DNA of 64,000 nucleotides, from contig CAVOHK010000005.1 in the NCBI GenBank assembly GCA_963695635.1, forward strand, positions 66,821-130,820. The letters run 5' to 3'. How positions within the stretch are numbered: the first letter of the stretch is position 1; each line of letters starts with the position of its first letter. The stretch comes from an uncultured Acidobacteriota bacterium (GTDB taxonomy: Bacteria; Acidobacteriota; Vicinamibacteria; Vicinamibacterales; CAVVIG01). The notes beneath the pieces are model-generated. The model ran no database searches and was not told the origin of the DNA. It saw only the letters and a list, made by a program, of their open reading frames with translations. Positions 5,476 through 57,505 of the stretch are shown one piece after another. The position numbers and the translations under genes are program-made.

Positions 5476-5538
5476 GTCGCTCGTCGCTCGTCGCTCGTCG
5501 CTCGCCACTCGAGAGGCGAGCAGCGAGCCGCGAGAATC
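5476..5538. repeat. Heptamer tandem-repeat hairpin: (GTCGCTC)x4, GCCACTC, then GAGAGGC GAGCAGC GAGCCGC GAGAATC
   Basis: Read directly. It has strict 7-nt phasing and the two halves are roughly complementary. The same unit family occurs at 46457-46554. Confidence 0.85.
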
Positions 5539-5552
5539 GGTACAATTCCGCC

Positions 5553-6614
5553 ATGCTTCCCACCGTCGCGCGCGAGGCCGACGCGGTCGTGATGATCGAC
5601 CAGCGCAAGCTTCCCGCCCAGGAAATTTACGTTCGCTGCAAGACTGCCGCTGAGGTCGCCAAGGCAATTAAGACCATGGTCATTCGCGGCGCGCCGGCGA
5701 TCGGTGTCTCGGCGGCGATGGGCATCGCGCTCGGCATGCGCAAGAGCAAGGCGACCGGCACCCTGAAGTTCGGCGCGGAGTTTCAGAAGACGTGCGACCT
5801 GATGGCGGCGACCCGGCCGACCGCGGTCAACCTGTTTTGGGCGATCGAGCGGATGAAGCGGACGTTTGCGGCAGCGGCGCAAGCGGGCGACTCGGTTGAA
5901 CAAATCAAAGACAAGCTCGATCGTGAAGCGGACTTGATTCACGACGAAGACGTGGCCAGTTGCCGCGCGCTGGGTGCGTTCGGCGCCGACGTCGTGCCGG
6001 CCGACGCGCGCGTCTTGACGCATTGCAACGCCGGCGCGCTCGCGACCGCCGGATATGGCACGGCTCTCGGCGTTATCCGCGGCGCGGTCGAAAAAGGCAA
6101 GCGCGTCGCGGTGTTCGCCGACGAAACGCGTCCGTTCCTGCAAGGTGCACGTCTCACCGCCTGGGAACTCGTCAGGGACAACATTCCGACGACGGTGATT
6201 ACCGACAACATGACGGCGGCGCTGATGCGCCAGGGCAAAGTGGACCTGGTGGTCGTCGGCGCCGACCGGATTGCCGCGAACGGTGATACCGCGAACAAGA
6301 TCGGTACCTACGGCGTGGCGGTACTCGCGCGCGAGCACAAGATCCCGTTCTACGTGGCCGCGCCGCTTTCGACGATCGATTTGAACACGCCCGACGGCGA
6401 CCACATCCCGATCGAAGAACGCAATGCCCGGGAAGTGACCCATGTCGGCGGCACGCAACTCACGCCGCGCGGCGCCGAAGTGTGGAATCCGGCGTTCGAC
6501 GTGACACCGCACCAATACATCGCCGGCATCATTACCGAGCGCGGGATCTTCAGGGCGCCATACGTGGAATCGTTGAAGAGCGCGTTCGAAGCGCACGAGC
6601 TTGTGAAGCGTTAA
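5553..6614 (+). CDS. mtnA: S-methyl-5-thioribose-1-phosphate isomerase
   Basis: Internal ATG at 5553 of ORF 4431..6614. [21 protein letters not shown]..., [35 protein letters not shown] and FDVTP are typical of MtnA/eIF-2B-related isomerases. Confidence 0.9.
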
Positions 6615-6624
6615 AGCACGACGC

Positions 6625-7782
6625 ATGCTGATCCTCGGAATCGAAACTTCCTGCGACGAAACGGCGGCCGCCATCGTCGAGGAAACCGGCGATACGGCGA
6701 AGCCATGGGCGATCCGCTCGAACGTCATCGCCTCGCAGGTGCCGATTCATCGCGAGTGGGGCGGTGTGGTCCCCGAGCTGGCATCCCGGCAGCACATTCG
6801 AGACATCTGCGGCGTTGTCGAGCGCGCGCTGGAGGAGGGCCGGACATCGTGGCGACAACTGGGCGGCATCGCCGTCACCCAGGGACCTGGTCTGGTCGGG
6901 TCGCTCCTGATCGGTGTGTCGTTCGCGAAAGCAGCCGCGGCCGCAACAGGTTTGCCACTCGTACCGGTCCATCACCTGGCCGGACACATCGAATCGCTAG
7001 TCCTGCAGAACGGCGAGATGCCGTTGCCCGCCGTCGTGCTGGTCGTGTCTGGCGGACACACCAGCCTGTATCACGTCGAGCGCCCGGGCGAATACCAACT
7101 GGTCAGCCGCACCCGCGACGATGCCGCCGGCGAGGCTTACGACAAGGTGGCCAAGTTGCTGGGCCTCGGCTACCCCGGCGGTCCGGTGATCGACCGGCTG
7201 GCGAGGACCGGCGATGACCGCGCGGTTGCCTTGCCGACAATGCGCTTGACGCACGCCGATCGCAATGCGCCGCAACTGAAAGGCGATCTCGATTTCAGCT
7301 TCAGTGGCCTGAAGACCGCGGTCCTGCGATACGTGCGGGAGCGTGCGACGGCAGAGCCGCTCAGCCCCTCTGAAGTCGCCAATCTCTGTGCGAGTTTCCA
7401 GCGGATCGTCGTCACCGTATTGATCGATCGGCTGTTCGATGCGGCGCGCCGCTTCGCCGCTCGCAGCGTCGGCATTGCCGGCGGCGTATCCGCGAACAGC
7501 CGCTTGCGTGAAGAGCTCCAACGCCGCGGTGAGGCGCGGGAGATTCCCACGTATCTGCCGAGCCTGGCGCTCTCGACCGATAACGCCGCAATGATCGCTG
7601 CCGCAGGACTCCGCCGTTTCCACGCCGGCGTTCGCGCGACGGCCGATCTCAATGCCGACGCGTCACTGGCGCTGATGAAGGGTTTTTACCGATTACCTCT
7701 TTTTCAACACCAGGAAGCGCCAGGAGTTCGTTCGCATCACCGACGACATCCAGGCAATCGTCACGAAGAGCGGCGTCAGTGA
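6625..7782 (+). CDS. tsaD: tRNA N6-adenosine threonylcarbamoyltransferase TsaD; about the last 35 codons look like read-through
   Basis: [25 protein letters not shown] and VSGGHT are present. Homology ends near ..NADASLAL (about 7672). The tail overlaps the N-terminal coding region of the next gene in another frame. Confidence 0.9.
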
Positions 7783-8089
7783 CGGCACCGTGTTGGTGTC
7801 GGCGATGCACATCACGGCCGGCGTCTACGTCAACGATTGGGAAGACGGCCTGATTCACGACTTTCAGGAGTGGCTCGAAAAGTTGGCGCCGGCCGGACTG
7901 AATTACCGGCATCACCAGACCGGAGAAGACAACGCCGACGCACACTTGAAGCGGACAATCATCGGCCACCAGGTGGTGTTGCCGATCACCAACGCCAAAC
8001 TCGATCTTGGACCATGGGAGCAGGTGTTTTATGCCGAGTTCGACGGCCAACGGAAAAAACGTGTTGTCGTCAAGGTGATGGGTGTCTGA
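7679..8089 (+). CDS. YjbQ/UPF0047-family protein (secondary thiamine-phosphate synthase-like); start codon displaced by a frame anomaly
   Basis: Track ORF 7790..8089 ([15 protein letters not shown]...[14 protein letters not shown]...[13 protein letters not shown]). The same frame stays open and family-like upstream to 7679 ([22 protein letters not shown]). The only candidate ATG (7675) is one base out of frame. Confidence 0.75.
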
Positions 8090-11103: not shown

Positions 11104-11678
11104 ATGGGCCTGAATCGAGACGACGCCTGGGCACTGCTCACCGAGTACACCAAGAGCGAAAGCCTGCTGAAACACGCGATGGCGGTCGAGGCCGCGGTCC
11201 GCGGCTACGCCCGTCAGTTTGGCGAAGACGAAGACGACTGGGGCGTTACCGCGCTGCTGCACGACTTCGACTACGAGCGTTGGCCGACGCTCGGCGACCA
11301 CCCGAACAAGGGCGCGGAAATTCTGCGTGCCAAGGGCTATCCAGAGTGGATGATTCGTGCGATTCTGTCGCACGCGATGGAAATCACCGGCGTGACCCGC
11401 GACAGCCAACTCGAGAAGACGCTGTTTGCGTGCGACGAACTCGCCGGTTTCATCACCGCGGCGTCATTGGTGCGTCCCAGCAAGAGCGTCATCGATCTCG
11501 AAGCCAGCTCGGTGAAAAAGCGGATGAAAGACAAGGCCTTCGCGCGCGGTGTGAAGCGTGAAGACCTGCGTGGCCGGCGCGGAACTGCTCGGTCTGCCGC
11601 TGGACCAGCACATTACGAATGTGATCGGCTTCATGCGTGAGAAGGCCGACGACTCTCGGACTGCGCGGAACCTTGTAG
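11104..11678 (+). pseudogene. HD/HDIG-domain metal-dependent phosphohydrolase, frameshifted near the 3' end
   Basis: ORF 11104..11640 has the LLHDFDYERW HD motif and SHA. It continues in ORF 11558..11827 (GAELLGLPLDQHITNVIGFMREKADD), then a third frame gives ..LGLRGTL with a stop near 11676. Confidence 0.7.
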
Positions 11679-11740: not shown

Positions 11741-12681
11741 ATGGTTCGGGTGTCCCCGGATCCAGCGTTGTCACGCTCGAGAGCGTCACGGTTACGTACG
11801 GCAAGAATGCCGCGCTGCGCGACGTGACCGCGTCGTTCCCGGCCGGCGCCGTCGGACTGCTCGGCCCGAACGGCGCAGGCAAGAGCACGATGATCAAGGC
11901 GCTACTGGGGTTTCTGGTGCCGACCCGCGGCCGGATGCGCGTGCTGGGCCTCGACGTCGCGGATGTTCCGCTCGAAATTCGCGCCCGTGTCGGTTACATG
12001 CCGGAAAGCGACGGCCACATCCCTGGCATGAACGCGGTGTCGTTCGTCGCCTACTGCGGTGAACTGGCCGGGCTGCCGCGGGTCGACGCGATGCAGCGTG
12101 CCCACGAGGTGCTGTTCTACGTCGGGCTCGGCGAAGCGCGCTATCGCAACGTCGAGACGTATTCCACCGGCATGAAGCAGCGCATCAAGCTCGCCCAGGC
12201 GCTGGTGCACGATCCCGACCTGCTGTTCCTCGACGAGCCGACCAACGGCATGGATCCAAAGGGCCGAGACGAGATGCTCGAACTCGTTCGCGACCTGGCG
12301 CACAACAAAGGCGTCAATCTGATTCTGTCGTCGCACCTGCTGCCCGACGTCGAATACACCTGCGATCACGTGATCGTGCTCGACAAGGGAACCATCGCCA
12401 CCGCCGGTCCGATCAACGCGCTGAAACAGCCGCGCGGCCGCGTTTACGAATTGCGGGTGAAATCGGCAGCGGCACTCGAGGCGTTCATCGAACGGTTGCG
12501 GGTTGCCGGGCTTGATTGCCATGCGACCGATGAAGATGTCATGCGCGTCTTTGTCCCGGGCGCCGGCGGCGCGCGTGAAATTTTTGCGCTCGCGGCGGCG
12601 GATCGGGTGCAGGTGCGCCACTTGCGGCCGAGCGTGCCGACGCTGGAAGACGTGTTTGCGAAAGCAGTTGGAGAGGAGTAG
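11741..12681 (+). CDS. ABC transporter ATP-binding protein (start region frameshifted)
   Basis: ORF 11824..12681 has Walker A GPNGAGKST, signature YSTGMKQR and Walker B LLFLDEPT. The same frame is open upstream (SSVVTLESVTVTYGKNAALRDV), but the nearest ATG (11741) is in another frame. Confidence 0.85.
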
Positions 12682-12683: not shown

Positions 12684-12749
12684 GAACGCAGAGACCGCCG
12701 AGATCGCCGAGCTACTGGATTCTCGGCGCGCTTCGCGAGCTCGGCGTTC
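12684..12749. repeat. REP-like palindrome of the GAACGCCGAG family
   Basis: GAACGCAGAGACCGCCGAGATCGCCGAGC, a loop, then TCTCGGCGCGCTTCGCGAGCTCGGCGTTC. It sits between the ABC ATPase stop and the permease start. Relatives lie at 37500, 60098, 34843 and 49135. Confidence 0.8.
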
Positions 12750-22105: not shown

Positions 22106-23155
22106 ATGCGGGTCGCAGTCATACCCGGCGATGGCATCGGCGTGGAAGTGACCGCTGAAGCCGTCAAGGTGTTGCGGCGAGTCGGTGAAGTGTTCGGACG
22201 ACAGTTCGACCTTCATTCGCTGCCGTGGAGCGCCGATCATTTCCTGAAGACTGGCGAAACGATTCCGGCCAACGGCTACGCGATGCTCCGTGACGAGTTC
22301 GAAGCGGTGTTGATTGGCGCGCTCGGCGATCCGCGTGTGCCCGACAATCGTCACGCTCGCGACATTTTGCTCGGCACCCGTTTCGAACTCGACCTCTACG
22401 TCAACTATCGTCCGGTGAAACTGCTTCACGAGCGACTGTGTCCGCTCAAGAACCGGCAGCCCGCGGACGTCGACTTCGTGGTGTTTCGCGAAAACACCGA
22501 GGGCTTGTACGTCAACATCGGCGGCCGGTTCAAAGCCGGGACCGATGATGAAGTGGCGGTGCAGGAGGAAGTGAACACTTACAAAGGCGTGCATCGCATC
22601 GTGAAACACGCGTTCGAGTTTGCCCGCGGCAATGGCCGACGTCGTGTCTGCATGGCCGATAAGAGCAACGCGATGACGCACGGCCATGCGTTGTGGCAGC
22701 GGGTGTTTCGCGAGCTTGCAGCGCAGTATCCGGAGATCGAGGCGCGGCATCTCTACATCGATGCGCTGGCACTGCTGATGGTGCAGGACCCGTCGCAATT
22801 CGAGGTGATCGTGACGAACAACCTGTTCGGCGACATCGTCACGGACCTTGGCGCAGCGCTGCAGGGCGGACTCGGCCTCGCCGCGTCGGGCAATCTGCAT
22901 CCTGGCCGCACCTCGATGTTCGAACCGGTTCACGGCTCGGCGCCGCCGCTGGCCGGAAAAAACCTCGCGAACCCGATGGGTGCGATCCTTTCGGCCGCCT
23001 TGATGCTGCAGTCGATGGGACTGAAACTGGAAGGCGCGGCCGTCGAGGCCGCCGTTAAGCAGGCAGTCGTGAACGGCCAGGGCACGAAGGAAATCGGCGG
23101 ATCGCTCGGCACACGTGAAACGGGTGACTACATCACGAACGCGATCACCACATAG
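22106..23155 (+). CDS. Isocitrate/isopropylmalate dehydrogenase family protein (tartrate/D-malate or 3-IPM dehydrogenase-like)
   Basis: 349 aa with [51 protein letters not shown] and FEPVHGSAP. Substrate specificity cannot be called by eye. Confidence 0.85.
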
Positions 23156-23193
23156 TCTTCGCTTCGTGTTGAAACGTTATCGAACGAGGGAAC

Positions 23194-23259
23194 ATGCGGC
23201 CTGCCACCGCCTGCATCGGCGGCGGCCAGAGCATCGCCGCAATCGTAGAAACGATCTGA
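23194..23259 (+). pseudogene. Relic of a thiolase C-terminus (about 22-26 codons)
   Basis: My own translation is (IERGN)MRPATACIGGGQSIAAIVETI then stop. It matches the conserved thiolase end ..ATLCIGGGQGIA..E. There is no upstream body. Confidence 0.5.
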
Positions 23260-23264
23260 ATTAA

Positions 23265-23350
23265 GTCATCTAGTCGTCTGGTCATTTAGTCATTTGATTG
23301 GTCAATTGATCAATGCAATGACCAGATGACCAGATGACCAATGACCAGAT
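23265..23350. repeat. Tandem 7-8 nt repeat hairpin, unit (A)TGACCA(G/A) with complement GTCAT(C/T)T(A/G)
   Basis: GTCATCTA GTCGTCTG GTCATTTA GTCATTTGATTGGTCA, centre ATTGATCAAT, then ATGACCAG ATGACCAG ATGACCA ATGACCAG. It creates the spurious upstream ATG at 23341. Confidence 0.85.
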
Positions 23351-23367: not shown

Positions 23368-24219
23368 ATGGCGATTAAGACGGTTGGCGTTCTGGGCTGT
23401 GGCCTGATGGGATCCGGCATCGCGCAAGTGTGCGCAGCGGCCGGCTATAAGACGGTGGTTCGCGAAGTGGACGACATCGCGCTTGCTCGCGGCGTCGGCC
23501 GGATCAAGAAATTTCTCGACGATGGCGTGGCGAAAGGGAAGGTTGAAGCGGCCGCGCGCGAGCAGACGCTCGCCAATCTTTCGGGGACGACCAACTTCGA
23601 CAGCCTCAAGGACTGCGATCTGATCATCGAAGCGATCATCGAAAACCTCGACGACAAGCGGCAGACCTACGCGTCGCTCGAAAAGATTGTCAAGCCTTCG
23701 ACGATCTTCGTGTCGAACACTTCGTCATTGTGCATAACCGAGCTCGCCGCGACGACCTCGCGGCCGGATCGATTTGGCGGCCTGCATTTTTTCAACCCGG
23801 TTCCGTTGATGAAGCTGGTTGAGGTGATCCGGGCGTTGACGACCAGCGATGAAACCTACCAGGCGGTCTTCAGCTTCGCGCAATCGCTCGGCAAGGAACC
23901 GATCACCGCGCCCGACCGTCCCGGGTTCATCGTCAATCGGCTGCTCGTGCCGTACCTGCTCGATGCGATTCGCGCTTACGAAAACGGGCTTGGCACGTTG
24001 GAAGACATCGACAAGGGGATGAAGCTCGGATGCGGCTACCCGATGGGGCCGTTCACGCTGCTCGACTTCGTCGGACTCGACACGACTTACTACATCGCGA
24101 ACATCATGTTCGAAGAATTTCGCGAACCGGCGTACGCACCGCCGCCACTGCTGAAGCGGATGGTGCTCGCCGGGCGGCACGGCCGGAAATCGGGGCAGGG
24201 CTTCTACAAATACGACTAA
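23368..24219 (+). CDS. hbd: 3-hydroxybutyryl-CoA / 3-hydroxyacyl-CoA dehydrogenase
   Basis: MAIKTVGVLGCGLMGSGIAQ (Rossmann fold), NTSS, HFFNPV and PGFIVNR. The ATG at 23368 is preceded by GAGG, and the track start at 23341 lies inside the repeat. Confidence 0.92.
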   Translation: MAIKTVGVLGCGLMGSGIAQVCAAAGYKTVVREVDDIALARGVGRIKKFLDDGVAKGKVEAAAREQTLANLSGTTNFDSLKDCDLIIEAIIENLDDKRQTYASLEKIVKPSTIFVSNTSSLCITELAATTSRPDRFGGLHFFNPVPLMKLVEVIRALTTSDETYQAVFSFAQSLGKEPITAPDRPGFIVNRLLVPYLLDAIRAYENGLGTLEDIDKGMKLGCGYPMGPFTLLDFVGLDTTYYIANIMFEEFREPAYAPPPLLKRMVLAGRHGRKSGQGFYKYD

Positions 24220-24850: not shown

Positions 24851-24871
24851 TTTCGGGCGATTATAACACAC

Positions 24872-37499: not shown

Positions 37500-37566
37500 G
37501 AACGCCGAGCTCGCCAAGAACGCCGAGAAACAATTGTTCTCTGCGGCCTCGGCGAGCTCGGCGTTC
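37500..37566. repeat. REP-like palindrome of the GAACGCCGAG family
   Basis: GAACGCCGAGCTCGCCAAGAACGCCGAGAA, loop acaatt, then GTTCTCTGCGGCCTCGGCGAGCTCGGCGTTC. It lies between convergent genes. Confidence 0.85.
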
Positions 37567-37575: not shown

Positions 37576-40500
37576 TCAGAACAAGAACTTCGCCGCGAAC
37601 TGAATCTGCCGCGCCGACCCGGAGTCGCCGGTCGGGAAGCGGGTATTCGAGATCACGCCGAACGACGTGCTGCCGACGGCGGCCGTGCGGCCCGGCTGGC
37701 CGAGGTTCCCCTGGTTGAACAGGTTGAACATTTCGACGCGGAACTGAGCGCGCGAGCTGCCGACCAGCTTGATGTTCTTGATGAACGACAGGTCCGTATT
37801 GCCGAAGCCCGGTCCGTACATCACGTTCCGTCCAAGGTTACCGAAGTGCGCGACGCCCGCTGCGTTGTACGGCAGCGCGAAGATCGACGAGGACGTGCAG
37901 GCGCCGGCGGTTCCCGCGGCAATGCGCGGATCGCAGACCGTCGTCTGGCCGTCAAACCACTGGTAGCTCACCGGGAAACCATTCTTGTCGTTGTTCGGTG
38001 TCGCCACGATGGACGGCAGCGTTCCGATGAGATCCGGCCGGACCGTTGCGGTGCCAGTAATCGTCGTGATGTTCGTGACGATGTTGAACGGGTTGCCGGT
38101 CTGGGCCTGCTCGACGACGACGATCTGCCATCCGTCCTTCAGGCGGTTGCCGTGGAACGGAAGATCCCACGACGCGTTCACCGACATGCGGTGGCGGACG
38201 TCGAAGTCCGATGCCCCCACCTGAGCCGGCGAGGTTCGTGTTGTCCTGGGCCGTCAAGGTGCCGTCGTACGAGTTCGTGTCCGTCGACTTCGACAGCGTG
38301 TACGAGCCTGAGAGCTGCAGGCCGTGCGAGTAGTGGTGGTTCGCCGTCACCCACAGCCCTTTGTAATCCGACCAGCCGAGGCTGGTTGCTTCCGTGATGT
38401 TGCCAAGCGCCGCACCGGGAAGAATCGGCGAGGTCGCCGAGAGCTTGGGATACGGACGCACCGTGCCGCCCGGCGTCGTGAACTGATTCAGGTTGATCGG
38501 AATGCGCTGCCGGTCGCCGTGCGATCCGAAGTAGCCGACCATCACGCCCATGCGGCCGATCTCTCGCTCGACGTTGACGTTCCAGGACTGCATCCGACCC
38601 GGCAGGAAGTTCGGGTCGGTGAAGGTCGGCGCGGACGACGTCGCCGCGCCCGCTCCGTTGATGGCGTTGTCCAGCTTGATGTTGCTGGCCGCCGTGCCGC
38701 TGGCTTGCGCCGACAGCGGCGTCACGATCGGCGGATTCCCGGTCTCGCCGGTAAAGTAGCCGGTGTTGCTCTGGTTCACCATGACGGCATAGGCGCCGCG
38801 GACCGACAGTCTTGCCATCACCCGTGGGGTTCCAGATGACGCCCGACGCGCGGCTGGAAGTCGCTGCCGTTTTTGGTGACCTGCGTGAACCCGCCCGGGC
38901 CGTTGATCTGCAGCAGCGACTGCGTCGCCGGATCGAACGCGACGAGCTTGTCGTCAGCCTCGGTCGGCGACGGCAGGTAGTCGTACCGCAGGCCGAGATC
39001 GAGCTTCACGTTCGAGCCGAGCGAGACTGAATCCTGGACGAAGGCGCCGATGGCGTTCACGTAGGCGTTGAACGCCTGCGTGCCGAGTGTGGTGGCAAAG
39101 GCGCTGCCGAATCCCTGCTGAAACGCTGCGACGCTGGGATAGGTGAAGGTGCCCGGATTCTGGCTGAAGCCGTAGTGCTTGACGCGCCGGGCTTCGCCGC
39201 CGAACTTGATGATCTGCTTGCCGTGCAGATACGTTGCGGTGTCGCCCACCGCGAACGTCGTCACCTCGCGGCCGCTCGGGAACCCGGCCGGACCTCCGAA
39301 GATCAGGCCCGGACCGGAAATCGTGATCGCCGGCAGCGCGATCGGCATGGTCGTTTGGCCGACGTTGATGCCGAGAGCGTTCGTGTCGACGAGCGTCTGC
39401 GGGATGAAGCGTGATGCTGATCCGGTTGTATCCGGCGCGCACTTCGTTCACCAGCGCCGAGTTGAAGATGTGCGTCTCGTTGACCGTCATGATCTGGCGG
39501 TGTCCGCCGCGCCGGTCCGGGAAGCCCGGCACAGTCTGTCCCTGCGCGTTCGACTCCAGGCGGGAGTCCTTCTGGAACGCGTAGTAGAAATGGAGGTCGT
39601 CGCTCTGCCGCAGGTTGTTGCGTGAATCGATCGTGTATTGATCGATGGTGACCGGCGCCAGCGGCGAGCTGATCGCGCGCGTACCGGTCAGGTCGTTGGC
39701 CTTCGGGATGTACTGGAGCAGATTCTTCGCCGTCGGATCGGTGACGCCGGCGCGTTGCGCGTCGGTCAGCGTGCCGGAATTCAGGTCGACGCCCTGCTCG
39801 TGGCGAAGCCCTTCGTAGCTGCCGAAGTAGAACGACCGGTTCTTCACCACGGCTCCGCCGAGGTTGACGCCGAACTGCTTCCGGTTGAACAGCGATTGCT
39901 GCGTGGTATTGCCCGACGTGTCGATGCTCGGCGGGATTGAAGTAGTTGCGCGAATCGAACTGGTCGTCGCGGTAGAAGTCGAACGCTTCACCGTGCATCT
40001 GGTTGGCGCCCGATCGCGTCGCGACGTTGACGATGGCGCCCGAGTTGCGGCCGTACTCGGCGCTGAACGTCGAGTTGTCCACCTTGAATTCCGACACCGT
40101 GTTGATCGACGGCTGGAACGTGACCTGCGAGTTGGACAGGTCGTTCAGGTTGATCCCGTTCAGCATCATGTTGACGGACGTCTCACGGTTGCCGGCCGAC
40201 ATGAACGAAAACGATCCCTGGCCGCGGAGCGGCGCGCTGAGGCCCGCGTTCTGTGGCGACGTCGAGCCGCCGGGCATCAGCGGACCGAGGTCGACGAAGT
40301 GGCGCCCGTTCAGCGGAATTTCCTGCACGGTCTTTTCCTGCCATCGCCTGGCCGACCGACGTCGTCGCGGTATCGATCAGCGGGGACGAACCGGTCACCG
40401 TCACGTTTTCGGAAAGCGACGCCGAGGCCGAGCTTCAAATTGAGAACGATCGTCTGGGCAGGCCCGAGATCGGTTTCGCCGTTCTGGTCCTTGAAGCCTT

Positions 40501-40877: not shown

Positions 40878-40920
40878 AAAAAAGCGAAGGGCGCGGCCAG
40901 GTTTCCCCGACCGCGCCCTT
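40878..40920 (-). terminator. Rho-independent terminator of the radical SAM gene
   Basis: The minus strand reads AAGGGCGCGG, a loop, CCGCGCCCTT, then cgCTTTTTTGG. Confidence 0.65.
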
Positions 40921-40935: not shown

Positions 40936-40970
40936 CTAATCCCTGAATCCCCAATCCCCAATCCCTAATC
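40936..40970. repeat. Tandem heptamer repeat AATCCC(C/T) x4-5
   Basis: TAATCCCTGAATCCCCAATCCCCAATCCCTAATCAC sits immediately 3' of the radical SAM stop and before its terminator. Confidence 0.8.
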
Positions 40971-40971: not shown

Positions 40972-43134
40972 CTACACGATCGGCTTGTGCAGCACTTCCG
41001 CCGGCTCCTGGGCCTTCTTCTTGCCGCCCAGGCCCTGAATCTGCAGGGTCGGTTGCTCTTTCAGCACGTGCTGGCGATAGAGCTTGGCCATTTCGGCGTC
41101 GCGCGCGAGTTCTTCGGGCGTCCTTGTCTTGTCCGGGGCCCCTCCCCCGGAGTGCTTGTCCGGGCTCCTCCCCCGGAGTGCTTCCGCGCCTGCGCCGCCA
41201 GCTTCTCTTCACGCGCGTTCTTGGCGATACCGAGATCGTCGAGGTCGGTCTGCGCGCCGGCGGCCACGGCCTCGTCGTTCAGCACCAACGAATGTTCGTT
41301 CGAATTCAGCTGCACGCTCTTGCCGCCGGCGAAGATTTCGTGGCGGCCGTGCTCCTCGTACCACTTGGTGAGCGTGGCCGTCATGTGCATCTTTTCAATA
41401 ATGTTTCTCCAGCCGATGCCGGTGTTATACGCGCAGAAGGAAATTTCGCCCTGCTGCGTGGCATACGGGATGATGCACATCTCGGTGCGACGGAAGTCGT
41501 AGTTGAAGAGATCCTGGAACCACATGCCGGCGACGAACAGGAAGTTCCAGCGATCGGCGCGGCGCTTCGCGATGTCGTCCATCGTCCGATCGCCCTCAAC
41601 CCGGCCGTACTTGCCCTTTTCCGCCGACTTGGTCGCACCGAAGGTCTTGTCGAACTTCTTCAGCAGATCGGTCAGCTTGAAGTGGGTCGGCGAGTTGAAC
41701 GAATCGTAGTTGCGGACGAGCGACAGCGCCATGCCGAACACCGACAGGAATCGGCCGCGGCCCGCGTCTGTCACCTGGGCAATATCCTTGGCGAGTTGTT
41801 CAGCCTTGAGGAACTTGGTGACGGGAACCGCTTCTTTGGTTTCCTTGTCGATCATGATCGCCATGCCGACGCCGCAGTTCGGGTGGCAGCCGCAGGTCAG
41901 CTGGCCGAATTCCTTTTCGGCGCCGTGCGTCACGTCGGCCCAGTCGGTGAAGCTGCCCATGAAGGAAATCGGGAACCAGTCACGGACCGGCTCGCCGATA
42001 CCGGTCTGGTTCTTCACGTCGTGCGCGAGGTGCGACAGCGTGTAGCGCTGCGCCGCGCGCCGCTCCGGCGTCACTTCTTCGTCCCGGCCGGTGAACGATA
42101 CCGGCTGGAACGAGAGGAAGTTGATCTTCTTCGGGTTGTCGAGCGCGAACTCGATGATGCGTCCGACCTGCTCGTTGTTGACGCCGTTGACGATCGTCAC
42201 GACCGGCACGATGTCGACGCCGGCGCTGTAGAGGTTCTCGATCGCGCGCAGCTTTACGTCGAACAGGTTGCCGACGCGGCGGTGCGAGTTGGCCGCGTTG
42301 CCGATGCCGTCAAACTGCAGGTAGGCGTAGCGCAGTCCCGCTTCAGCGGCCGCCTTGGCAAACTCCGGGCTCTTCGCGAACTCGATGCCGTTGGTGGCGG
42401 CCTGAACGCTGTTGTAGCCGACCTTGCGCGCGTAGCGAACGGCGTCAAGGAAGTATGGGGAGATCGTCGGCTCGCCGCCCGAGAACTGGACCGACATCTG
42501 TCGGCGCGGCTTGATGGTGATCGCGTTGTCGAGCACCGTCTTGATGTCTTCCCAGCGACAGCTCATGCACGAAACCAACCTGGTTCGCGTCCATGAAGCA
42601 TGGGTCGCACATCATGTTGCAGCGGTTCGTCAGGTCGACCGTAAGCACCGAGCCGCGGCCGTGCTTGATGGTGCTCGAGCCGTGGTTGTGCAGCTTATCG
42701 TCGTTATGGGCGCGGATGTCGCGGCCTGGGAACACTTCTTCGAGATGCTTGAAGAAATCGGTGTCGATCGCCATCACGTCCTCGAAGTGGCCGTGAATCG
42801 GGCAATCCTTCACCATGAGGATCTTGCCGTCGCGCTCGAGAATCGTCGCTTTGATTTCGCCGACCTTCTCGTTCAGCAGGACGCTGACGTCTTTCTTACC
42901 GTCGAGAATCGCCTGCCGCGCTTCGCGCGTGCAGGTCGGGCACAGCGAGTCGGTCTCGCGCGGCCAGCCAAGTGGCGGTTTCGTCTTTTCGTAAGACTTC
43001 AACAGCGGCTTGTCGGACCACTTCGGCGTAAAGGAAGGTCGCTGGTTGATTTTGTTCAGCGCATTGAAGACCACCCACGCACCGTTCGCGGCAATCGACA
43101 GGCCCTTCTCGGCGTATTTGATAGGCTCGTGCAT
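40972..43134 (-). pseudogene. Radical SAM protein, Tes/GDGT-MAS (membrane-spanning lipid synthase)-like; 1-nt indel near 42555 and a 26-nt tandem duplication at 41131-41183
   Basis: ORF 42445..43134 has SLCPTC...DCPIHGH and TNRCNMMCDPCF. ORF 41061..42578 has FSGGEPT and CGCHPNCG. My own third frame gives the end ..PDKTRTPEELARDAEMAKLYRQHVLKEQPTLQIQGLGGKKKAQEPAEVLHKPIV with TAG at 40972. Confidence 0.8.
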
Positions 43135-43230: not shown

Positions 43231-43253
43231 CAAAAGACGACCGCAGCGGTCGG
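43231..43253 (-). terminator. Weak hairpin plus T-tract downstream of the receptor gene
   Basis: The minus strand reads CCGACCGCTGCGGTCG then TCTTTTGG. The stem is short. Confidence 0.3.
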
Positions 43254-43271: not shown

Positions 43272-43366
43272 AGGGGACTGAGGGACTAGGGGGACTGAGG
43301 GACTGGGGAACTGCGGGCTGGAGTGACTCAGGACTAGTTTCCTAGTCCCCTAGTCCCCCAGTCCCC
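43272..43366. repeat. Tandem 7-9 nt repeat hairpin, unit G(A/G)GGGACT(G/A) with complement AGTCCCC(T/C)
   Basis: AGGGGACTGAGGGACTAGGGGGACTGAGGGACTGGGGAACTG...CCTAGTCCCCTAGTCCCCCAGTCCCC. It starts 6 nt after the stop at 43372. Confidence 0.85.
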
Positions 43367-43371: not shown

Positions 43372-46290
43372 TCAGAACTTCATCTGCAGCCCGAACCGTG
43401 CGAACCGGCCGTCGACGATGCCGGTCGGCGTCAGCCACAGGTTCGTGCCGGTCGCCGCGTACGTCTGGTTCACGCTCGTGACGGTGCCGAGCGTTGAACA
43501 CGTTGAAGACGTCCATGAAACCCTGGATCCTGTACCGGTCGAAGCGGAACGTCTTGCCGAACCGCATGTCGAACCGATGCTGGCGTGTCGAGGAACAGGG
43601 TGTCCCGATTCCACCAGGTTGACGACCGTCGATGTCGTCGCCGGCCGTGGATCCGATGATCGGACGGCCCGCAATCGCCGCCGTCACCGTGTAGTTCGCC
43701 GCGATCGTGTTGGGGGCAGGAATCGGCCGAGAACGTAGCCGCTGACCTGGATGTCCTAGGGGAACGAGTAGGCGCCCGACGCCTTGACCGTGGTCCGGAA
43801 CGGCGGCAGCCGAGTCGCAGAAGCGCAGCGCCGTTCGGATTGTCACGCGTCGTCGCCGGCGTTCGCCGTCGCAGTCGTCGAGACGCGGCGATCGGTCGTC
43901 ACGCCACCGAACAGCAGGTACTTGGCGCCCCGCGCGTTGACCGTGAACTCGACGCCGTCGTAGGTGGTCTTGTTCTGCGTCGAGTACGTCGCGCAGGTTG
44001 TCCGTTGCGACGCCGACTTTGCTGCTGTTCAACGTGTACATCGAGATCGGCTGTCCCGCCAGCGGCAGCCGCGAGTCGGTCGGCGTGTTGATGCGTGTAG
44101 CGCGGTCCAGTCGGACTCGGCCCGACGTTCAGGTTGTCGTTCACCTGGAGGTTGTAGAAGTCGCGGCGGTAGTAGCCCGCCGTCGCCGACAGGCGCGGCC
44201 GCAGTTCGCGCTGCAGCACGACGCTGTATTCCCAGTTGTAGCCGCGCGGCAGGTTCGGATCCGGCCGCGACGTGACCTGGCCGAAGTTCGACGTGCCGCC
44301 GAGCACTTCGTTGGTCTGGATGCGAGCCGTCGGCGTTGAGGATCGTCTTGTCGCCGTTGGCGTCGTTCCAGCGTGCGCGTCTGCGGCACACCGGCAAGGG
44401 TGCCGCTCATGCCGTTGAACGTCTGCGCGAAGCCGGCCGCCTGCGCGGCGACGTACTTGCCGACGTTGCCCTTGAGCGCCGTCTTGCCGTCGCCGGTCAG
44501 GTCGTACGCCGCCGCGAAGCGGACCGCCCAGTCGTTCCAGTTCGGCACGTTCTTGATCTCGGCGAAGTTGCGCGCGCCGATCCAGGTCGACGCCGGCGAC
44601 GATTCCGCCGGAATCGACGCGTTGAAGTGCTCGAACCGGGCGCCGTAGTGCAGCGTCAGGCGCTTCATCGTCCAGGCATCCTGCCCGAAGAGGCCGAGGT
44701 CGCTGTTGACGTTCTGATACGACGGTGGCCGGTGAGTTGTAGACCGAAACCTGCGAACGGGAAGTCGATGAGCGGATCGTCGTGCCCGGCATGACGATGT
44801 TGACGGTGATCAGCGTGTTGATGTTCGCGCGCGGCGCGAACGTCCGCGAGTTCTCGCCCCAGAGGTTCGTGAAGCCGAACTTCATCGCGTGGCGAGCCGG
44901 TGACGTAGCTGGCCGACGCGAGGACGTTGTAGTCGTTGGTCGTCGCTCGTGTACGGCGGAATCAGGTAGCCGCAGCGGCCCGTGAGCAGGCCCGTCGAGA
45001 CATTGAGCTTGGGCAGCGCCATCGGGTTGGTCGCGTTCGCGAGCAGTTCTGCTCGTACGCCTGGTTGTACTGGGCGATGCCCGCCTCGAGGAGCAGCTTG
45101 TTCGAATGCGCGCGCGTCCAGCGCACCTGCGGAATCCAGCCGACGCCGAACGCGTCGGTTGACGCTTCAGGCGTCATGACGGCGTAGGTATTGAAGCCGT
45201 TGTAGAACTCGCCGTTGTATTGCTTCTCGATATATGCGCGGACCTTGTCCTTGCTGCCCAAAGCGACCGTCACGCGTCCGGCCCCGCTGTAGTTGCCCAT
45301 CAGATTGCGATACGCCTGGCTGCCGTCCGGGAACTTCGCGCTCGGGACGTAGATCTTGCATCCTGGTACTTGTAGGTGAAGAAGAACCAGGCCTTGTCCT
45401 TCACGATCGGGCCGCCGAACGCCGGATTGACCTGCCAGTCGTACGCCGTGCCGGCGATGGCGATGAGCGGGAGCCCGTTCGCCTGAATCGCCTTCATCTG
45501 ATCGGTGCGGTTGTCCGACTGCAGGCCGCTGCCCTGGTACGACAGGAAGAAGGATCCCGAGAAACGGTTGCCGCCGTCTTTCGGCACCTGGTTGACGCGG
45601 ATGCCGCTGCTCTGGATTTCGGCGGATTCGGATCCGGTCGCGTAGCTCAACTCCTGGATGGCGCGCGTCGTTCATGTAGAAGCCGCTGTACTGACCGCTG
45701 CCGCACAGGTTGTTGACGCGCAGACCGTCGATCGCCATCGTGAAGTCGGACGTCGAGGACCCGTGACTCGTCAGGTTGTACTGACCCAGCACGAACGGCG
45801 TCACGGTTGTTCCTGGAATCAGCAGCGCCCGCGCCGTGGTGTCGCGCCGGGTCGTCGGAATCGCGTCGAGGACGTCGCGGTTCGCGACGAATTCCTTCTG
45901 CGTGTTGATGACGTCGACGGTCGGCGTTTCCGCCGTGACGGTCAGCGTCTCTTCCATCGCGCCGACCTGGAGCTCGACGTTGATTTGGGCGACGAACGTG
46001 CCCTCAATCACGATGCCGCCGCGCCGGACGGTCTTGAAGCCTGTCAGCGTATAGGCCATCGAGTACGTCCCGGGCGGAAGGTCAACGATCTTGTACTGAC
46101 CTGCGCCGTCGGTTATTGCGGTGCGGCTCTTCTCAATCAGCGAGTCGCTGGATGCTTCAACGGTGACGCCGGGCATGATGGCGCCGCTGGTGTCTCGCAC
46201 CATACCGGCAATGCTGCCCTGCGCGAGCGCAATAGCCGGGACGAACAGAACGAATAGCGCGACCGTGAGTCGCACGCACAGCTTCCGCAT
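43372..46290 (-). pseudogene. Outer-membrane TonB-dependent-receptor-like protein with CarboxypepD_reg N-terminus, at least 8 frameshifts
   Basis: N-terminus MRKLCVRLTVALFVLFVPAIALAQGSIAGMVRDTSGAIMPGVTVEASS.. is in ORF 44962..46365. Other pieces are ORFs 45300, 44141, 43899 and 43334. The C-terminus ..GRFARFGLQMKF is in ORF 43372..43674. Confidence 0.8.
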
Positions 46291-46456
46291 CGGCCCTCCT
46301 CCGAATCGGATTCCACTTTCGACGGGTGTTTCGCGGACGTTAACACCGACCGGACGGTCGGTCAATCAGCTTTTGGCGCTGCGGGGCGCCGTTGCGGAGG
46401 GCGATCCGGAAGTCCGTATCAGCGGCGATTTGTTCGGATTTAGGCAGATTTTTGCC

Positions 46457-46554
46457 GTCACTCGGCACTCGCCGCTCGCCCTCGCCGCTCGGCCTTCGCC
46501 GCTCGGCTGCGCCAGCAACGAGCGACGAGCGACGAGTGACAAGTGGCGAGCGAC
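46457..46554. repeat. Heptamer tandem-repeat hairpin: (GCCGCTC-like)x8, then AGCAAC (GAGCGAC)x2 GAGTGAC AAGTGGC GAGCGAC
   Basis: Read directly. It has the same unit family and orientation as 5476-5538, and it abuts the LytTR gene stop. Confidence 0.8.
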
Positions 46555-47309
46555 TAGATGCCGAGGCGGGTTTTCAGGTCGCGGACGCGATCGCGCGCCA
46601 CGCTGAGCTCGGTCTTGCGGTCGTCTTTCAGTCGCACCAGCACCCCACCGTCGACCGCCGGATACAGTTCCTGCACGAATCCGGTATTCACGATGGTCGC
46701 GCGATGAATCCGGACGAAGCGCCGCGAATCGAGCCGTTCTTCGAGTTGCGACAAGGTGAGATCGACGACGTGGTCGCGCCCGCCGACAACTGCAAACGTG
46801 AGCTTGTCGCGGGCGACGAAGTGCGTCACGCGCGCCACGTCGAGCAGCGTGGTCCGTTCGCCAACCTTTGACGCAATCCGATCCAGCTTGCGGGAGGGCG
46901 AGAGCTGCGCCGCCAGTTCGCGGGCGAGCGCACGGACGTCAGGTTGCGGCGGCTGCTGAGCGTACCGCTCGACCTTGTCGAGGGCGCGCTCCAAACGTTC
47001 GGGTTCGATTGGCTTTAACAGATAGTCGATCGCGCTGGTCTGGAATGCGTTGAGCGCGTAGGCGTCGTATGCCGTTGTGAATACAACGGTTGGCGGGCGC
47101 TCGAGCCGTTCGAGCAGTTCGAACCCGGTCATGCCCGGCATTTGAATGTCCAGGAACAGCACGTCCAGTGCCAGCTGGTTCAGCGTTTCCAAGGCATCCT
47201 GCGAATCGGTGGATGTTCCGACGATTTGCACACGACCGGTGTCGCGCAGCAGCCGTTCCAACCGCTGCACCGCCAACCGTTCGTCGTCAAGGATGAAGGA
47301 ACGGATCAT
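46554..47309 (-). CDS. LytR/AlgR-family response regulator (receiver plus LytTR)
   Basis: 251 aa with ILDDE, DVLFLDIQMPGMTGFELL and the LytTR end FVRIHRATIVN. Confidence 0.92.
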   Translation of the reverse strand: MIRSFILDDERLAVQRLERLLRDTGRVQIVGTSTDSQDALETLNQLALDVLFLDIQMPGMTGFELLERLERPPTVVFTTAYDAYALNAFQTSAIDYLLKPIEPERLERALDKVERYAQQPPQPDVRALARELAAQLSPSRKLDRIASKVGERTTLLDVARVTHFVARDKLTFAVVGGRDHVVDLTLSQLEERLDSRRFVRIHRATIVNTGFVQELYPAVDGGVLVRLKDDRKTELSVARDRVRDLKTRLGI

Positions 47310-55606: not shown

Positions 55607-56096
55607 CGAGATCTTCGTCCGACATCGCCGCCGGCATTTTCGCGTCGAGGCGGACGTCCGGCGCGCCGGCCCGTTCGATCGCCGGCGCCAGAATCGATTC
55701 GAGCTTGGAGCGGCAGTTGCGGATTTCGTCGCGGTCGCGGGCGATCAGTTCGCCTTCGACCAGCGGCTCGATCAGCGCGCGGCGATAGCTGCAACCGTGA
55801 TCTTCGTCGAGAATCCCGAAGCGCTCGAGGCCGCGCAGCACGATATTGTAGCGACCATCAGGCAGCCGTTCGGCGTGAGTAATCACACCGCTGCAGCCGG
55901 TGCGATAGACCGGCGGCCGGCCCTCGTAATCTGATTCCCAGCCCGGTCGCAACAGCACCATCCCGATCAGCCGGTCGGCGCTGAGCGCGTCCGCCACCAT
56001 GTCGCGATAACGCGGTTCGAAAATGTGCAGCGGCAGGAATACATTCGGAAACAGCACGACGTTCGGCAGCGGAAAGATCGGCAGAAGGTCTGACAT
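55449..56096 (-). CDS. LON substrate-binding (Lon N-terminal) domain protein
   Basis: 215 aa. LPIFPLPNVVLFPNVFLPLHIFEPRYRDMV is the hallmark start of LonN-domain proteins. Confidence 0.85.
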   Translation of the reverse strand: MSDLLPIFPLPNVVLFPNVFLPLHIFEPRYRDMVADALSADRLIGMVLLRPGWESDYEGRPPVYRTGCSGVITHAERLPDGRYNIVLRGLERFGILDEDHGCSYRRALIEPLVEGELIARDRDEIRNCRSKLESILAPAIERAGAPDVRLDAKMPAAMSDEDLVNALSQYLDLEPLEKQALLERPSLRARATSLVELLEMKMMAARTPAASNVAH

Positions 56097-57454
56097 CAGT
56101 GAATCGTTCGCGTTTTCTTGTTCACGTAGTCCATCAATACGTACTGGCCGAGCGTGTAGGGTGTGGTGAAATACGCCTTGCCCTTGCAGATTTCGGCGAC
56201 GCGGCGCACGAAGCTGACCAGGTCGTAATCGCGCGCCAGCATGAAGGTGTTGATCATGATGCCGCTTTTACGGCACGCCGCGACCTCGGCGCAGGTTTCG
56301 GCGACGATGAACGGGTCGAGGCCGAATGCATTCTTGTAGATCCGGCCGTCCGGCTGGGTCAACGCCGACGGCTTGCCGTCGGTGATCATGATGATCTGCC
56401 GCATGTCTTTCCGCTGGCGATCGAGAATCCGTCGCGCCAGCCGCAGCCCTTCGCGGGTGTTGGTGTAGTAAGGACCGACCCTGACGCGCCCGAGTTCCGC
56501 GAGCGGAATTTCTTCGGCCGAGTCGTGGAACAACACCACTTTTAGCGCATCGCCCGGGTACTGCGACTTGATCAACTGCGCCAGCGCCAGCGCGACCCGC
56601 TTGGCCGGCGTGAAGCGATCCTCGCCGTAAAGAATCATCGAGTGACTGCAATCGAGCATCAGCACGGTCGCACACGAGCTTTGATACTCGCCTTGGGTCA
56701 CCATCAGGTCGCGGTGAGTGACATGAATGGGACGACGGGGTGCCGCGTGCTGGGTGCTGGGTGCTGGGTGCTGGTGCTGGGTGTCGGGTGCGGGTGCGGG
56801 TGCCGGGTGCGGGTGCCGGGTGCTGGTGCGCTCTGCTTCCGCTTCGCGCTGGACGGCGTTCAACAGCGTGCTGGTGGCGTCGAGGTTGAGCGTATCGCCA
56901 AATTCGTAGGGCTTTACTGCGCCGGTCGTCTCGACGCCGGTGGCCTGCTCGCGGGTGTCGTGGCGGCCGAAGCTGCTCTTGCCTAGCGAGCCGAGCAGAT
57001 CGCGCAGCGCGCGATAGCCGAGGAAATCGAGTGCCTTGTCGGTCACTTCGAACGTCACCGGACCCTGCTGGCCTTCACCCACGCCGCCGCCGCGCGCTTG
57101 CCGGCGCTCGCGTTCGGCCGCGAGATCGGGCGGCGTCGAAATGTAGCCTTCCTGGCCCATCCGCTCGATGATTTTCTGGATCAACTCTTCCAGCTTCGAC
57201 CGCGCGTCCGATTGATCCGCGTCGGCCGGATCGCCGAGCAGTCGCTCGATGGTTTCCTCGGGTAATACGCCGCCGTTGAACAACGCATCCAGAATCGCGT
57301 CATGCAGCGCCTGCATCGTCCGATCGTTTTCGTCGGTCGCGTACGGGTTGCTGAACCCGCTGGACAGCAGCAGATCGGAAAGCTTCGACACCAGATCCTC
57401 GAGATCCAGTTCGTCGAGCTCATCGCCGGTGAATTTCGTATATCGGTACTTCAA
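56096..57454 (-). CDS. VWA (CoxE-like) domain protein carrying an in-frame tandem-repeat insert
   Basis: 452 aa with a TTG start. The MIDAS motif is MLDCSHSM and the VWA body is ..[11 protein letters not shown]... A low-complexity segment [26 protein letters not shown] is encoded by the repeat at 56747-56829. Confidence 0.85.
56747..56829. repeat. Tandem 6-7 nt repeat (GTGCTGG / GTGCGG / GTGCCGG) inside the VWA CDS
   Basis: Read directly: GTGCTGGGTGCTGGGTGCTGGGTGCTGGTGCTGGGTGTCGGGTGCGGGTGCGGGTGCCGGGTGCGGGTGCCGGGTGCTGGTGCG. Confidence 0.85.
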
Positions 57455-57455
57455 A

Positions 57456-57505
57456 CAGTTCTCAGTTCTCAGTTCTCAGTTCTCTAGTTCTCAGTTCTTA
57501 GTTGT
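57456..57505. repeat. Tandem heptamer repeat (CAGTTCT)x4, CTAGTTCT, CAGTTCT, TAGTTGT
   Basis: It fills the whole AAA-VWA intergenic gap and supplies the last codons and stop of the AAA gene. Confidence 0.85.

Follow-up and report, generated by a model that had tools for sequence, protein, structure and literature searches.

Short-unit tandem repeat arrays at gene 3' ends in an uncultured Acidobacteriota bacterium and its relatives

Arrays in the window and the genes around them

The stretch analysed here, referred to as the window, consists of 64,000 nucleotides of contig CAVOHK010000005.1 from an uncultured soil bacterium of the Vicinamibacterales (Acidobacteriota; assembly GCA_963695635.1, positions 66,821 to 130,820 of the forward strand). 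It contains tandem arrays of short units, mostly heptamers, some of which continue into an approximate reverse complement and can fold as long hairpins. The arrays are real, lineage-wide, heptamer-dominated, located at gene 3' ends, extremely labile and often paired, and at least two of them are transcribed. With fixed criteria (Tandem Repeats Finder, TRF; period 4-12, at least 3 copies, score at least 40) nine arrays were called in the window, against a mean of 0.105 and a maximum of 2 in 200 dinucleotide-preserving shuffles, an excess of about 90-fold. Period 7 accounts for five of the nine. An earlier reading of the sequence (the original prediction) had grouped eight loci into one class of short-unit tandem arrays and expected them to exceed the level of shuffled sequence. 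TRF recovered tandem arrays at all eight, and the shuffles agree with the expectation. The list itself was incomplete, as three further hairpin loci of a single family (12684, 37500 and 60094) were found by an inverted-repeat scan and a pattern search (Table 1; loci are named by their first position). Rfam (gathering threshold) and ARAGORN searches gave no match in the window.

Table 1. Repeat arrays, hairpins and associated terminators in the window
Feature	Position	Strand	Evidence
Hairpin array, (GTCGCTC)x4.1 then imperfect GAGCGA-type complement	5476-5538	+	TRF 5476-5504, 100% matches; fold -41.3 kcal/mol, z -3.15
Degenerate third copy of the GAACGCCGAG...CTCGGCGTTC hairpin family	12684-12749	+	Pattern search; TRF 12687-12711; fold -34.8 kcal/mol, z only -1.0
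Hairpin array, degenerate (GTCATYTR)n left arm, (ATGACCAG)x4 right arm	23265-23350	+	Right arm x4.2, 23318-23350 (TRF); degenerate left arm 23260-23295; fold -44.4 kcal/mol, z -8.06
One-sided array (GGGTTCGC)x3.9	24227-24258	+	TRF; unstructured, fold z +1.1
GAACGCCGAG...CTCGGCGTTC-family hairpin, 9-10-nt period, CAATTG centre	37500-37566	.	Fold -49.8 kcal/mol, z -7.06
Canonical intrinsic terminator, 15-bp stem and T-rich tail, CGCTTTTTTG	40887-40920	-	Terminator search, fold; follows 40936 array
One-sided array, (GGGGATT/GGGATTG)n on mRNA strand, at least 4 G-tracts	40936-40970	-	TRF 40946-40970, AATCCCC x3.6
Terminator-like hairpin CGACCGCTGCGGTCG then TCTTTTGG	43238-43252	-	Downstream of 43272 hairpin
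Hairpin array (GGGGACTR)n / (YAGTCCCC)n	43272-43366	-	TRF 43274-43317 and 43341-43366 (GGGACTGA and complement); fold -68 kcal/mol, z -5.5
Hairpin array, CTCGSCG / GAGCGAC heptamers	46457-46554	-	TRF 46461-46554, CTCGCCG-type units, then AGCGACG x5.9; fold -70.4 kcal/mol, z -5.0
Coding heptamer array (AGCACCC)x13 on mRNA strand	56738-56829	-	TRF GGGTGCT x13; unstructured, fold z +1.05
One-sided array (AGAACTG)x6.7 on mRNA strand	57456-57505	-	TRF 57456-57503, CAGTTCT x6.7; fold z +1.1
Hairpin, 37500 family (28-nt identical left arm)	60094-60173	.	Fold -50.2 kcal/mol, z -8.09

The boundaries of array loci were checked by hand and with Pfam; the simple gene caller mis-splits frameshifted genes. 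On the minus strand, the 40936 array directly follows the stop codon (~40972-40977) of a tetraether-lipid-synthase-like radical SAM gene and precedes the terminator, and the 43272 hairpin begins ~6 nt past the stop codon (43372-43374) of a TonB-dependent-receptor-like outer membrane protein (OMP) gene (C-terminus ...GLQMKF*), followed by the terminator-like hairpin. The original prediction had placed both arrays between stop codon and intrinsic terminator, and stops and terminator-like sites were located accordingly. Because of this placement both arrays are transcribed. The 46457 array directly adjoins the stop codon of gene 46554-47309, which encodes a LytTR response regulator. The entire 36-nt spacer between an ATPase-like gene and the TTG start (57454) of the vWA gene downstream is occupied by the 57456 array, and the stop codon of the ATPase-like gene (57491-57493) lies within it.

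The 23265 hairpin has the C-terminal remnant of a thiolase (stop 23256-23258) on its upstream side and the start of hbd (23368) on its downstream side. The 24227 array begins 7 nt past the hbd stop codon, facing a convergent TetR gene. Two hairpins are found between convergent genes: 37500 between 36333-37487 (+) and an OMP fragment at 37576-38220 (-), and 60094 between 59792-60064 (+) and 60183-61883 (-). The copy at 12684 starts 3 nt past the stop codon of gene 11824-12681. All frames are free of stop codons in the 5476 array, which separates mtnA from a cytidine-deaminase-domain gene. The reading frame is preserved across it, so that the two genes read as one 662-aa open reading frame (ORF; 4626-6614) with Pfam domains dCMP_cyt_deam_1 (aa 160-249) and IF-2B (aa 353-642). 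Since several genes in the window are frameshifted, this read-through, exact copy numbers and in-frame statements are not fully reliable. ORFs do read through arrays, as had been anticipated in the remark that ORF lists turn them into spurious peptides. The TetR-family ORF on the minus strand (24104-24871) has no stop before the GGGTTCGC array, runs through it and overlaps the hbd 3' end by ~115 nt. The repeat appears, from the sequence, to have lengthened the TetR C-terminus.

One array is coding. The 56738 array is in frame inside a conserved vWA gene (56096-57454, Rv0959_3rd + VWA_2), where it encodes a His/Pro/Ala/Thr/Gln-rich, hypervariable linker between the motifs LNAVQRE and IHVTHxDLMV. 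In protein alignments the vWA protein is near-invariant except for this one linker, which is ~17-60 residues long and unrelated in sequence between relatives. The underlying array is (AGCACCC)n in the window and in the relatives L162 and L164 (114 nt in each), in L161 (102 nt) and in L166 (78 nt), and (CAGTCGT)n in L165 (93 nt). All of these lengths are multiples of 3, and the coding array is kept in frame across relatives at 88-99% identity. Linkers of other relatives often show a 7-residue peptide periodicity (e.g. PAPGTQH repeats in P0020 and P0024), the pattern that a heptamer array read in all three frames would yield. Judging from these alignments, heptamer arrays act as generators of a hypervariable protein linker.

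Two structural classes are present in the window: paired long hairpins and one-sided arrays. Long stable hairpins were predicted at six loci (5476, 23265, 37500, 43272, 46457 and 60094) from folds of the transcribed strand, with free energies of -41 to -70 kcal/mol and z-scores of -3.2 to -8.1. Among the eight loci of the original prediction, four (5476, 23265, 43272 and 46457; z -3.2 to -8.1) have a complementary arm, and 24227, 40936, 56738 and 57456 do not. The folds of 24227, 56738 and 57456 are no better than those of shuffles (z ~+1). At 40936 the adjacent terminator hairpin dominates the fold and the array is largely unpaired. In relatives an inverted partner was detected at at least 38 of 111 intergenic array loci. 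The claim that units are usually followed by an approximate complement therefore holds for about half of the window loci and for only about a third of the array loci in relatives. Several hairpins have near-perfect or spacerless palindromic centres: TTGATCAA at 23265, where the inverted-repeat scan leaves 0 nt between the arms, CAATTG at 37500 and CTCGAG at 5476.

No T-run follows any array hairpin in the window, so the combination of GC-rich stem and U-tract that marks a terminator was not found. The idea that the array hairpins are themselves intrinsic terminators was rejected on the absence of U-tracts; separate terminators follow two of the arrays (40936 and 43272). Selection on the RNA strand was also sought through G·U versus A·C mismatches in 24 co-directional hairpins. 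With 51 sense-compatible mismatches against 43 antisense (p=0.47), there was no signal. G3 or C3 tracts occur in several window units. The mRNA strand of 40936 (GGGATTGGGGATTGGGGATTCAGGGATTAGG) and the template strand of 56738 each carry at least four G3+ tracts with short loops, the pattern of a G-quadruplex (G4) at the level of sequence only.

Census and turnover in related genomes

The closest matches of the hbd protein are in metagenome-assembled genomes (MAGs) of Vicinamibacterales and Acidobacteriota, at up to 87-90% amino-acid identity, in line with the non-cyanobacterial context assumed by the original prediction. Around hbd the best match reached 90% amino-acid identity, and none came from the same strain. 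Exact-sequence look-ups of the hbd and thiolase proteins gave no record. TRF was run on 119 related loci (948 kb, hbd at least 74% identical), which gave 154 arrays and, together with the nine of the window, a set of 163. Closer relatives (L161, L162 and L164; 94-96% nucleotide identity) were reached through the vWA protein. Because the relatives were sampled around few orthologous genes, array counts are not independent events.

Arrays are dense in this lineage, at 16.2 per 100 kb in the near relatives. Their periods are restricted: 85 are of 7 nt, 33 of 8 nt and 25 of 9 nt, and none of the 154 is of 4-6 or 10 nt. The density falls to 4.6 arrays per 100 kb in more distant loci, including those on high-GC Vicinamibacterales chromosomes, and most of these arrays are coding repeats of 9 or 12 nt. 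Almost no arrays occur in the genomes with 68-72% GC. Although 87% of the DNA of the near relatives is predicted to be coding, 124 of the 154 arrays are intergenic (131 of 163 with the window included, where ~87% is likewise coding). Arrays occupy ~14% of the spacers in the clade (95 of 692). Co-directional spacers hold 66 array loci, convergent spacers 24 and divergent spacers 5, compared with 59, 13 and 23 expected from spacer length; by spacer number, 13 would be expected in divergent spacers. In co-directional spacers the array starts at a median of 7 nt past the upstream stop and ends at a median of 41 nt before the next start. The location of arrays immediately after stop codons, as originally proposed, is thus a strong 3'-end bias overall (median 7 nt from the stop, 5 divergent loci where 13-23 are expected), and the array at 56738-56829, inside the vWA gene, departs from it. 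The hbd spacers were considered as a special hot spot and this was rejected: arrays are found downstream of hbd in 21% and upstream in 17% of relatives, against ~14% overall.

Two short-read contigs break inside arrays, L085 at its end and L163 at its start. Arrays probably fragment metagenome assemblies of the clade, and long arrays are probably under-reported.

Between close strains the arrays turn over rapidly. The spacer between the ATPase-like and vWA genes holds the one-sided (AGAACTG)x6.7 array in the window. In L161 and L164 it holds a hairpin of 80-90 nt (CTCGTTG.../GAGTAAC, GAGCAAC), and in L162 the right arm of this hairpin has grown to ~20 units, giving a 177-nt spacer. A difference in copy number between strains, which the original prediction had suggested looking for, is therefore found here (~8 units in L161 or L164, ~20 in L162). 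L165, with 90% amino-acid identity in the vWA protein, has a CTCG-type hairpin as in L161 and L164. Because L165 keeps the CTCG-type hairpin of L161, L162 and L164, the window state is derived. More distant genomes have (GGGAGTA)n in L166 and (GGGATTG)n in L171 at this position.

Other spacers show the same lability. Behind the LytTR gene the window has a 98-nt hairpin, of which L161 lacks the interior 85 nt and retains a 16-nt seed, TCGCTCGCCACT|CGGC. The spacer after the LON-domain gene is 22 nt long in the window, ~80 nt in L162 and ~130 nt in L161 and L164, in every case as one ACGGAG-octamer hairpin. The 60094 site has two arms in the window and one in L161. The differences at 46457 and 60094 are unpolarised, as the outgroups L165 and L166 are rearranged there. 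In L165 a 46-nt spacer with (CAATCTG)x4.6 (11336-11381) separates the vWA and LON-domain genes, which overlap (TGATG) in 5 other genomes, including the window, L161, L164 and L166. By this comparison it is a clear insertion, an array birth that would have uncoupled two translationally coupled genes.

The identity of the unit changes within a given spacer as well. Behind hbd the unit is GGGTTCGC in the window and in L085 (more than 15 copies), AGTCTGA in L001 and L087, and AGTCTGA inverted and paired in L099, where the array orientation is flipped relative to L001 and L087. Further relatives have GAATCTG-like (L105), GAATGCAC (L097), AACTCAG (L010), CCGTCGA (L036) and TCGTTCG/CGAACGT (L104, L107) units in the same spacer. 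Past the radical SAM (Tes) gene the window has GGGGATT, whereas L168-L170 have TTCAGAA and then a CACGAAAA/TTTTCGTG hairpin.

Unit diversity and comparison with known repeats

The 163 arrays contain 125 distinct units after rotations and strands are collapsed. The original prediction likened several units to the short tandemly repeated repetitive (STRR) heptamers of heterocystous cyanobacteria. The STRR1 unit, reportedly described by Mazel et al. in 1990, is CCCCA(A/G)T; STRR2 is TT(G/T)GTCA and STRR3 is CAACAGT. The window unit AATCCCC (CCCCAAT when rotated) is an exact STRR1-type unit. With 125 units in 163 arrays and only 2 arrays of STRR1 type, the likeness is mostly coincidence. STRR2, STRR3, TAACTGA and GGGAATC units were all absent from the 163-array, hbd-centred set. 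Unit homology to STRR is almost absent from it. Outside that set a few STRR1- or STRR2-type units occur in a Luteitalea sp. MAG (L171, GCA_009380045.1). L171 contains a (GGGATTG)n array before the vWA gene (2270-2320) and a paired array of ~300 nt (5369-5673) with (AATGACC)x9 as its right arm, which is exactly of the STRR2 class (TTGGTCA). STRR-like units make up 3-4 arrays across relatives, against a rough chance estimate of ~0.5. The recurrence of such units across phyla above chance is suggestive only. A proposal that units are selected to carry stops in all frames was set aside as unconvincing (23 of 73 units in sense, 14 of 73 in antisense).

One hairpin family in the window differs from the other loci. 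The GAACGCCGAG...CTCGGCGTTC family is present in three copies (12684, 37500 and 60094), and 37500 and 60097 share an arm identical at 28 of 28 nt within unrelated flanks. It is absent from 1.74 Mb of relatives. When the window is examined for repetitive extragenic palindrome (REP)-type families, this is the one family with 3 copies in 64 kb and all other loci are unique, with the qualification that GTCGCTC-type units occur at both 5476 and 46457. An octamer hairpin family, CACGAARN...NYTTCGTG, is found at different loci in many relatives and not in the window: upstream of hbd in L081, L105, L106, L111, L129, L089 and L090, at 4741-4817 in L168-L170 and at ~12120 in L171. It may be a dispersed family, either mobile or convergent.

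STRR are 7-bp repeats of filamentous cyanobacteria which form hairpins between cistrons, for example between hupS and hupL, and for which roles in transcript stability or translational coupling were proposed (PMC2670836). The arrays share with them the mostly 7-bp tandem units, the intergenic or intercistronic position and the hairpin potential, and the STRR-like architecture named by the original prediction agrees with this published description. They differ in their host, an Acidobacteriota bacterium with 63% GC and not a heterocystous cyanobacterium, in the lack of a small genome-wide set of units, and in the commonness of 8- and 9-nt units. The arrays belong to the broad class of STRR and long simple-sequence repeats (SSRs), and a narrow definition of STRR (few conserved units, cyanobacterial host) fails for them.

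Heptamers are the most abundant long SSR in many bacterial genomes, and polymerase slippage has been proposed as their source (Mrazek et al. 2007, as relayed in PMC4692102 and PMC4679880). Units of 5-11 nt with heptamers commonest, a patchy taxonomic distribution and the confinement of units that are not multiples of 3 to intergenic DNA are listed there as features of long SSRs, and these are shared. Further agreement lies in the array number above chance (9 against 0.105), the order of periods (7 > 8 > 9) and the variation of copy number between close strains. Acidobacteriota are not among the repeat-rich genomes named in the consulted passages of the two papers. The present arrays differ by the large fraction paired into long hairpins, the stop-codon abutment and turnover at ~95% nucleotide identity.

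Two better-studied heptamers are closer in detail. The GGGAATC repeats of Xanthomonas and GGGGAYT repeats of Nostoc are intergenic, sometimes form inverted pairs and occupy the same gene gaps in related strains with varying length and sequence (Rehm et al. 2015, PMC4692102). The arrays resemble them in being intergenic heptamers, some in inverted pairs, in the same spacers, and the 40936 unit is identical. One G-rich unit dominates per genome there and G4 formation was demonstrated, whereas here many unrelated units coexist and the G4 assignment is by pattern. The TAACTGA repeats of marine Beggiatoaceae (MacGregor 2015, PMC4679880) are likewise intergenic heptamer direct repeats that often adjoin coding sequence. 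The window unit AACTGAG is one position off a rotation of TAACTGA, and L161 contains GTAACTGA units. There, TAACTGA is a single unit found mostly directly upstream of starts, in 2-6 copies and essentially without inverted pairs. The arrays described here have diverse units, lie mainly just after stops and are often paired.

Comparison with REP elements and bacterial interspersed mosaic elements (BIMEs) gives a partial match. Like them, the arrays include extragenic, transcribed hairpins after gene 3' ends and species-specific families (three copies of GAACGCCGAG...CTCGGCGTTC). Unlike them, most are tandem arrays specific to their locus and do not repeat a single palindrome of 20-40 nt. REP elements have a conserved GTAG or CGTC tetranucleotide at one end (abstract of PMC3733652). 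No GTAG/CGTC head was found in the window hairpins, the ends of which read GAAC...GTTC, GTCGCTC..., GTCATC... and GGGGACT.... Of the signs of miniature inverted-repeat transposable elements (MITEs), no flanking direct duplication was seen, and empty or short alleles in L161 keep the seed or one arm.

No description of such repeats in Vicinamibacterales, Luteitalea or Acidobacteriota was found in the limited collection of literature searched. The arrays have apparently not yet been described for this group; the class itself is already known. Their notable features are unit diversity, frequent pairing, stop-codon abutment and strain-level turnover.

Origin and possible function

The arrays are best read as hypermutable long-unit SSRs of the STRR-like class, mostly heptamers, which fill mutationally available space (probability about 0.6). 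Replication slippage on a short local seed would give rise to an array in place, and the array would then grow, shrink and homogenise. It would spread through unconstrained DNA, from the stop codon to the next ribosome-binding site, promoter or terminator, and occasionally into a protein linker that tolerates it, with survival there limited to lengths divisible by 3. The abutment to stop codons and the scarcity in divergent spacers would follow because arrays spread until they reach constrained sequence. Foldback (intrastrand) template switching would write the neighbouring reverse complement and so produce the form capable of hairpins or cruciforms, the arms of which would be lost as readily as gained. 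The palindromic or spacerless centres, the alleles with one or two arms and the flipped orientation in L099 support such foldback copying.

Several observations weigh against this account. The sampling around few orthologous genes limits the independence of the counts, and the frameshifted genes make copy numbers and in-frame statements of the window less reliable. For most presence/absence differences the outgroup could not set birth apart from deletion; it did so for the AAA-vWA spacer and for the insertion in L165. Slippage and template switching are read from the end states of the compared strains. None of the mechanisms considered accounts for the preference for 7 nt. In addition, the three-copy GAACGCCGAG...CTCGGCGTTC family is not explained by growth in place alone and points to putative intragenomic copying.

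That copying is the core of one alternative, in which the hairpins are REP- or MITE-like elements moved between sites, e.g. by a REP-associated or other transposase. Three copies of one family in 64 kb with the identical 28-nt arm at 37500 and 60097 in unrelated flanks, GTCGCTC-type units at both 5476 and 46457, and the CACGAARN octamer hairpin at different loci in relatives are what such elements would leave. As a general explanation it is improbable, since the 163 arrays have 125 different units, sites that lack the element are not clean, as a seed or one arm is left there, and lengths form graded series (22, ~80 and ~130 nt after the LON-domain gene). The examined sequences have no target-site duplications and no GTAG/CGTC heads, and one-sided and coding arrays do not fit. 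REP/MITE-like copying could hold for a subset only; it is needed for at least the three-copy GAACGCCGAG...CTCGGCGTTC family and does not explain most loci. A different origin, assembly or sequencing error in a repeat-prone and possibly long-read assembly, would be in keeping with the frameshifted genes, the 26-nt tandem duplication inside a gene of the window and the short-read contig L085 that ends inside an array. Well over 100 independent assemblies, made by different projects with different technologies, have equivalent arrays in the same spacers, and the coding array stays in frame across relatives at 88-99% identity; this origin is extremely improbable.

Selection for function is a stronger competitor to mutational space-filling, although it is still doubtful. 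Arrays, especially paired ones, would here be selected stem-loops in 3' untranslated regions (UTRs) or between cistrons, that block 3' exonucleases, reinforce terminators or take their place, or fix how strongly adjacent cistrons are expressed relative to each other, with rapid length change as a tuning knob. The same roles were proposed for STRR hairpins (PMC2670836). Stems of -41 to -70 kcal/mol are predicted to be very stable, two arrays lie between stop and terminator and are thus transcribed, and spacers are occupied often (95 of 692, ~14%) and re-occupied by different units. The tight 3'-end placement and the scarcity in divergent promoter regions also favour selection, but the filling of unconstrained DNA predicts the same position bias. 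Half to two thirds of arrays are one-sided and unstructured, the hairpins lack U-tracts, the 24 hairpins tested have no sense-strand G·U bias (51 against 43, p=0.47), and hairpins are lost or reduced between strains of ~95% identity with the genes intact. Lying between a stop codon and a terminator or the next start, arrays would be transcribed, and the paired ones would form very stable stem-loops in 3' UTRs and intercistronic RNA. By analogy with REP and STRR they could act as a barrier to 3' exonucleases or as a modulator of termination or coupling. Such an RNA effect may be a side effect and not the reason for the arrays; with no signal in the G·U versus A·C comparison, an adaptive RNA function is plausible but unsupported.

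It has also been considered that arrays are protein-binding, G4 or i-motif elements read in a 7-nt register, for instance by cold-shock-type single-strand binders or through G4 regulation as proposed for GGGNATC repeats. The (GGGGATT)n of the 40936 mRNA strand is the unit studied as G4-forming in Nostoc (PMC4692102), several units contain G3 or C3 tracts, and binding of heptamer repeats by CspB is noted in PMC4679880. This is quite unlikely, as nearly all units differ, so that no sequence-specific reader fits, and most units are without G-tracts. About equally remote is the boldest reading, that arrays are no passive products of slippage but are written by a lineage-specific process where translation ends and the mRNA is left free of ribosomes, with a preference for a 7-8-nt register, and that the fast-changing hairpins are heritable tuners of mRNA 3' ends and operon stoichiometry. 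Such a process might be foldback synthesis that is primed by an R-loop or a hairpin and carried out by a particular polymerase or primase. On this view a shared mechanism, not chance, would account for the recurrence of GGGGATT, TTGGTCA and AACTGA-like units in Acidobacteriota, cyanobacteria, Xanthomonas and Beggiatoaceae.

The dominance of heptamers among long bacterial microsatellites and the role of STRR-type repeats have been questions since 1990 and 2007. The clade is a natural experiment for both, with about one spacer in seven holding an array, diverse units and many metagenome genomes at 85-99% identity. Because of these dense arrays, diverse units and close genomes, a tree can give the order of births, expansions, replacements and the gain or loss of arms, and array density could be correlated with candidate enzymes across the clade. 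In practice, the arrays break short-read contigs and create spurious ORFs and apparent gene fusions in annotation, and hypervariable protein linkers arise from them. They could also serve as strain-typing markers for abundant soil Acidobacteriota.

Some genes beside the arrays are themselves irregular. The radical SAM gene (40972-43134, minus strand), ~700 aa long in relatives, is in three frame segments here, with a frameshift near 42555. Within it a 26-27-nt tandem duplication at 41128-41183 (CACTCCGGGGGAGG.GCCC.GGACAAG x2) repeats residues ~649-667 and breaks the frame. From its sequence the broken gene would be either a pseudogene or an assembly error. The two long CarboxypepD_reg / OMP beta-barrel (TonB-dependent-receptor-like) genes on the minus strand (43372-46365 and 37576-40328) are each split into several overlapping ORFs in different frames. 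The many frameshifts in the window would be compatible with a long-read assembly that was left unpolished. Many relatives have an intact thiolase gene immediately upstream of hbd. In the window this position has the C-terminal remnant (23179-23258, ...ACIGGGQSIAAIVETI*), preceded by a tartrate/isocitrate-dehydrogenase-like gene (22106-23155), and the remnant looks like the trace of a rearrangement.

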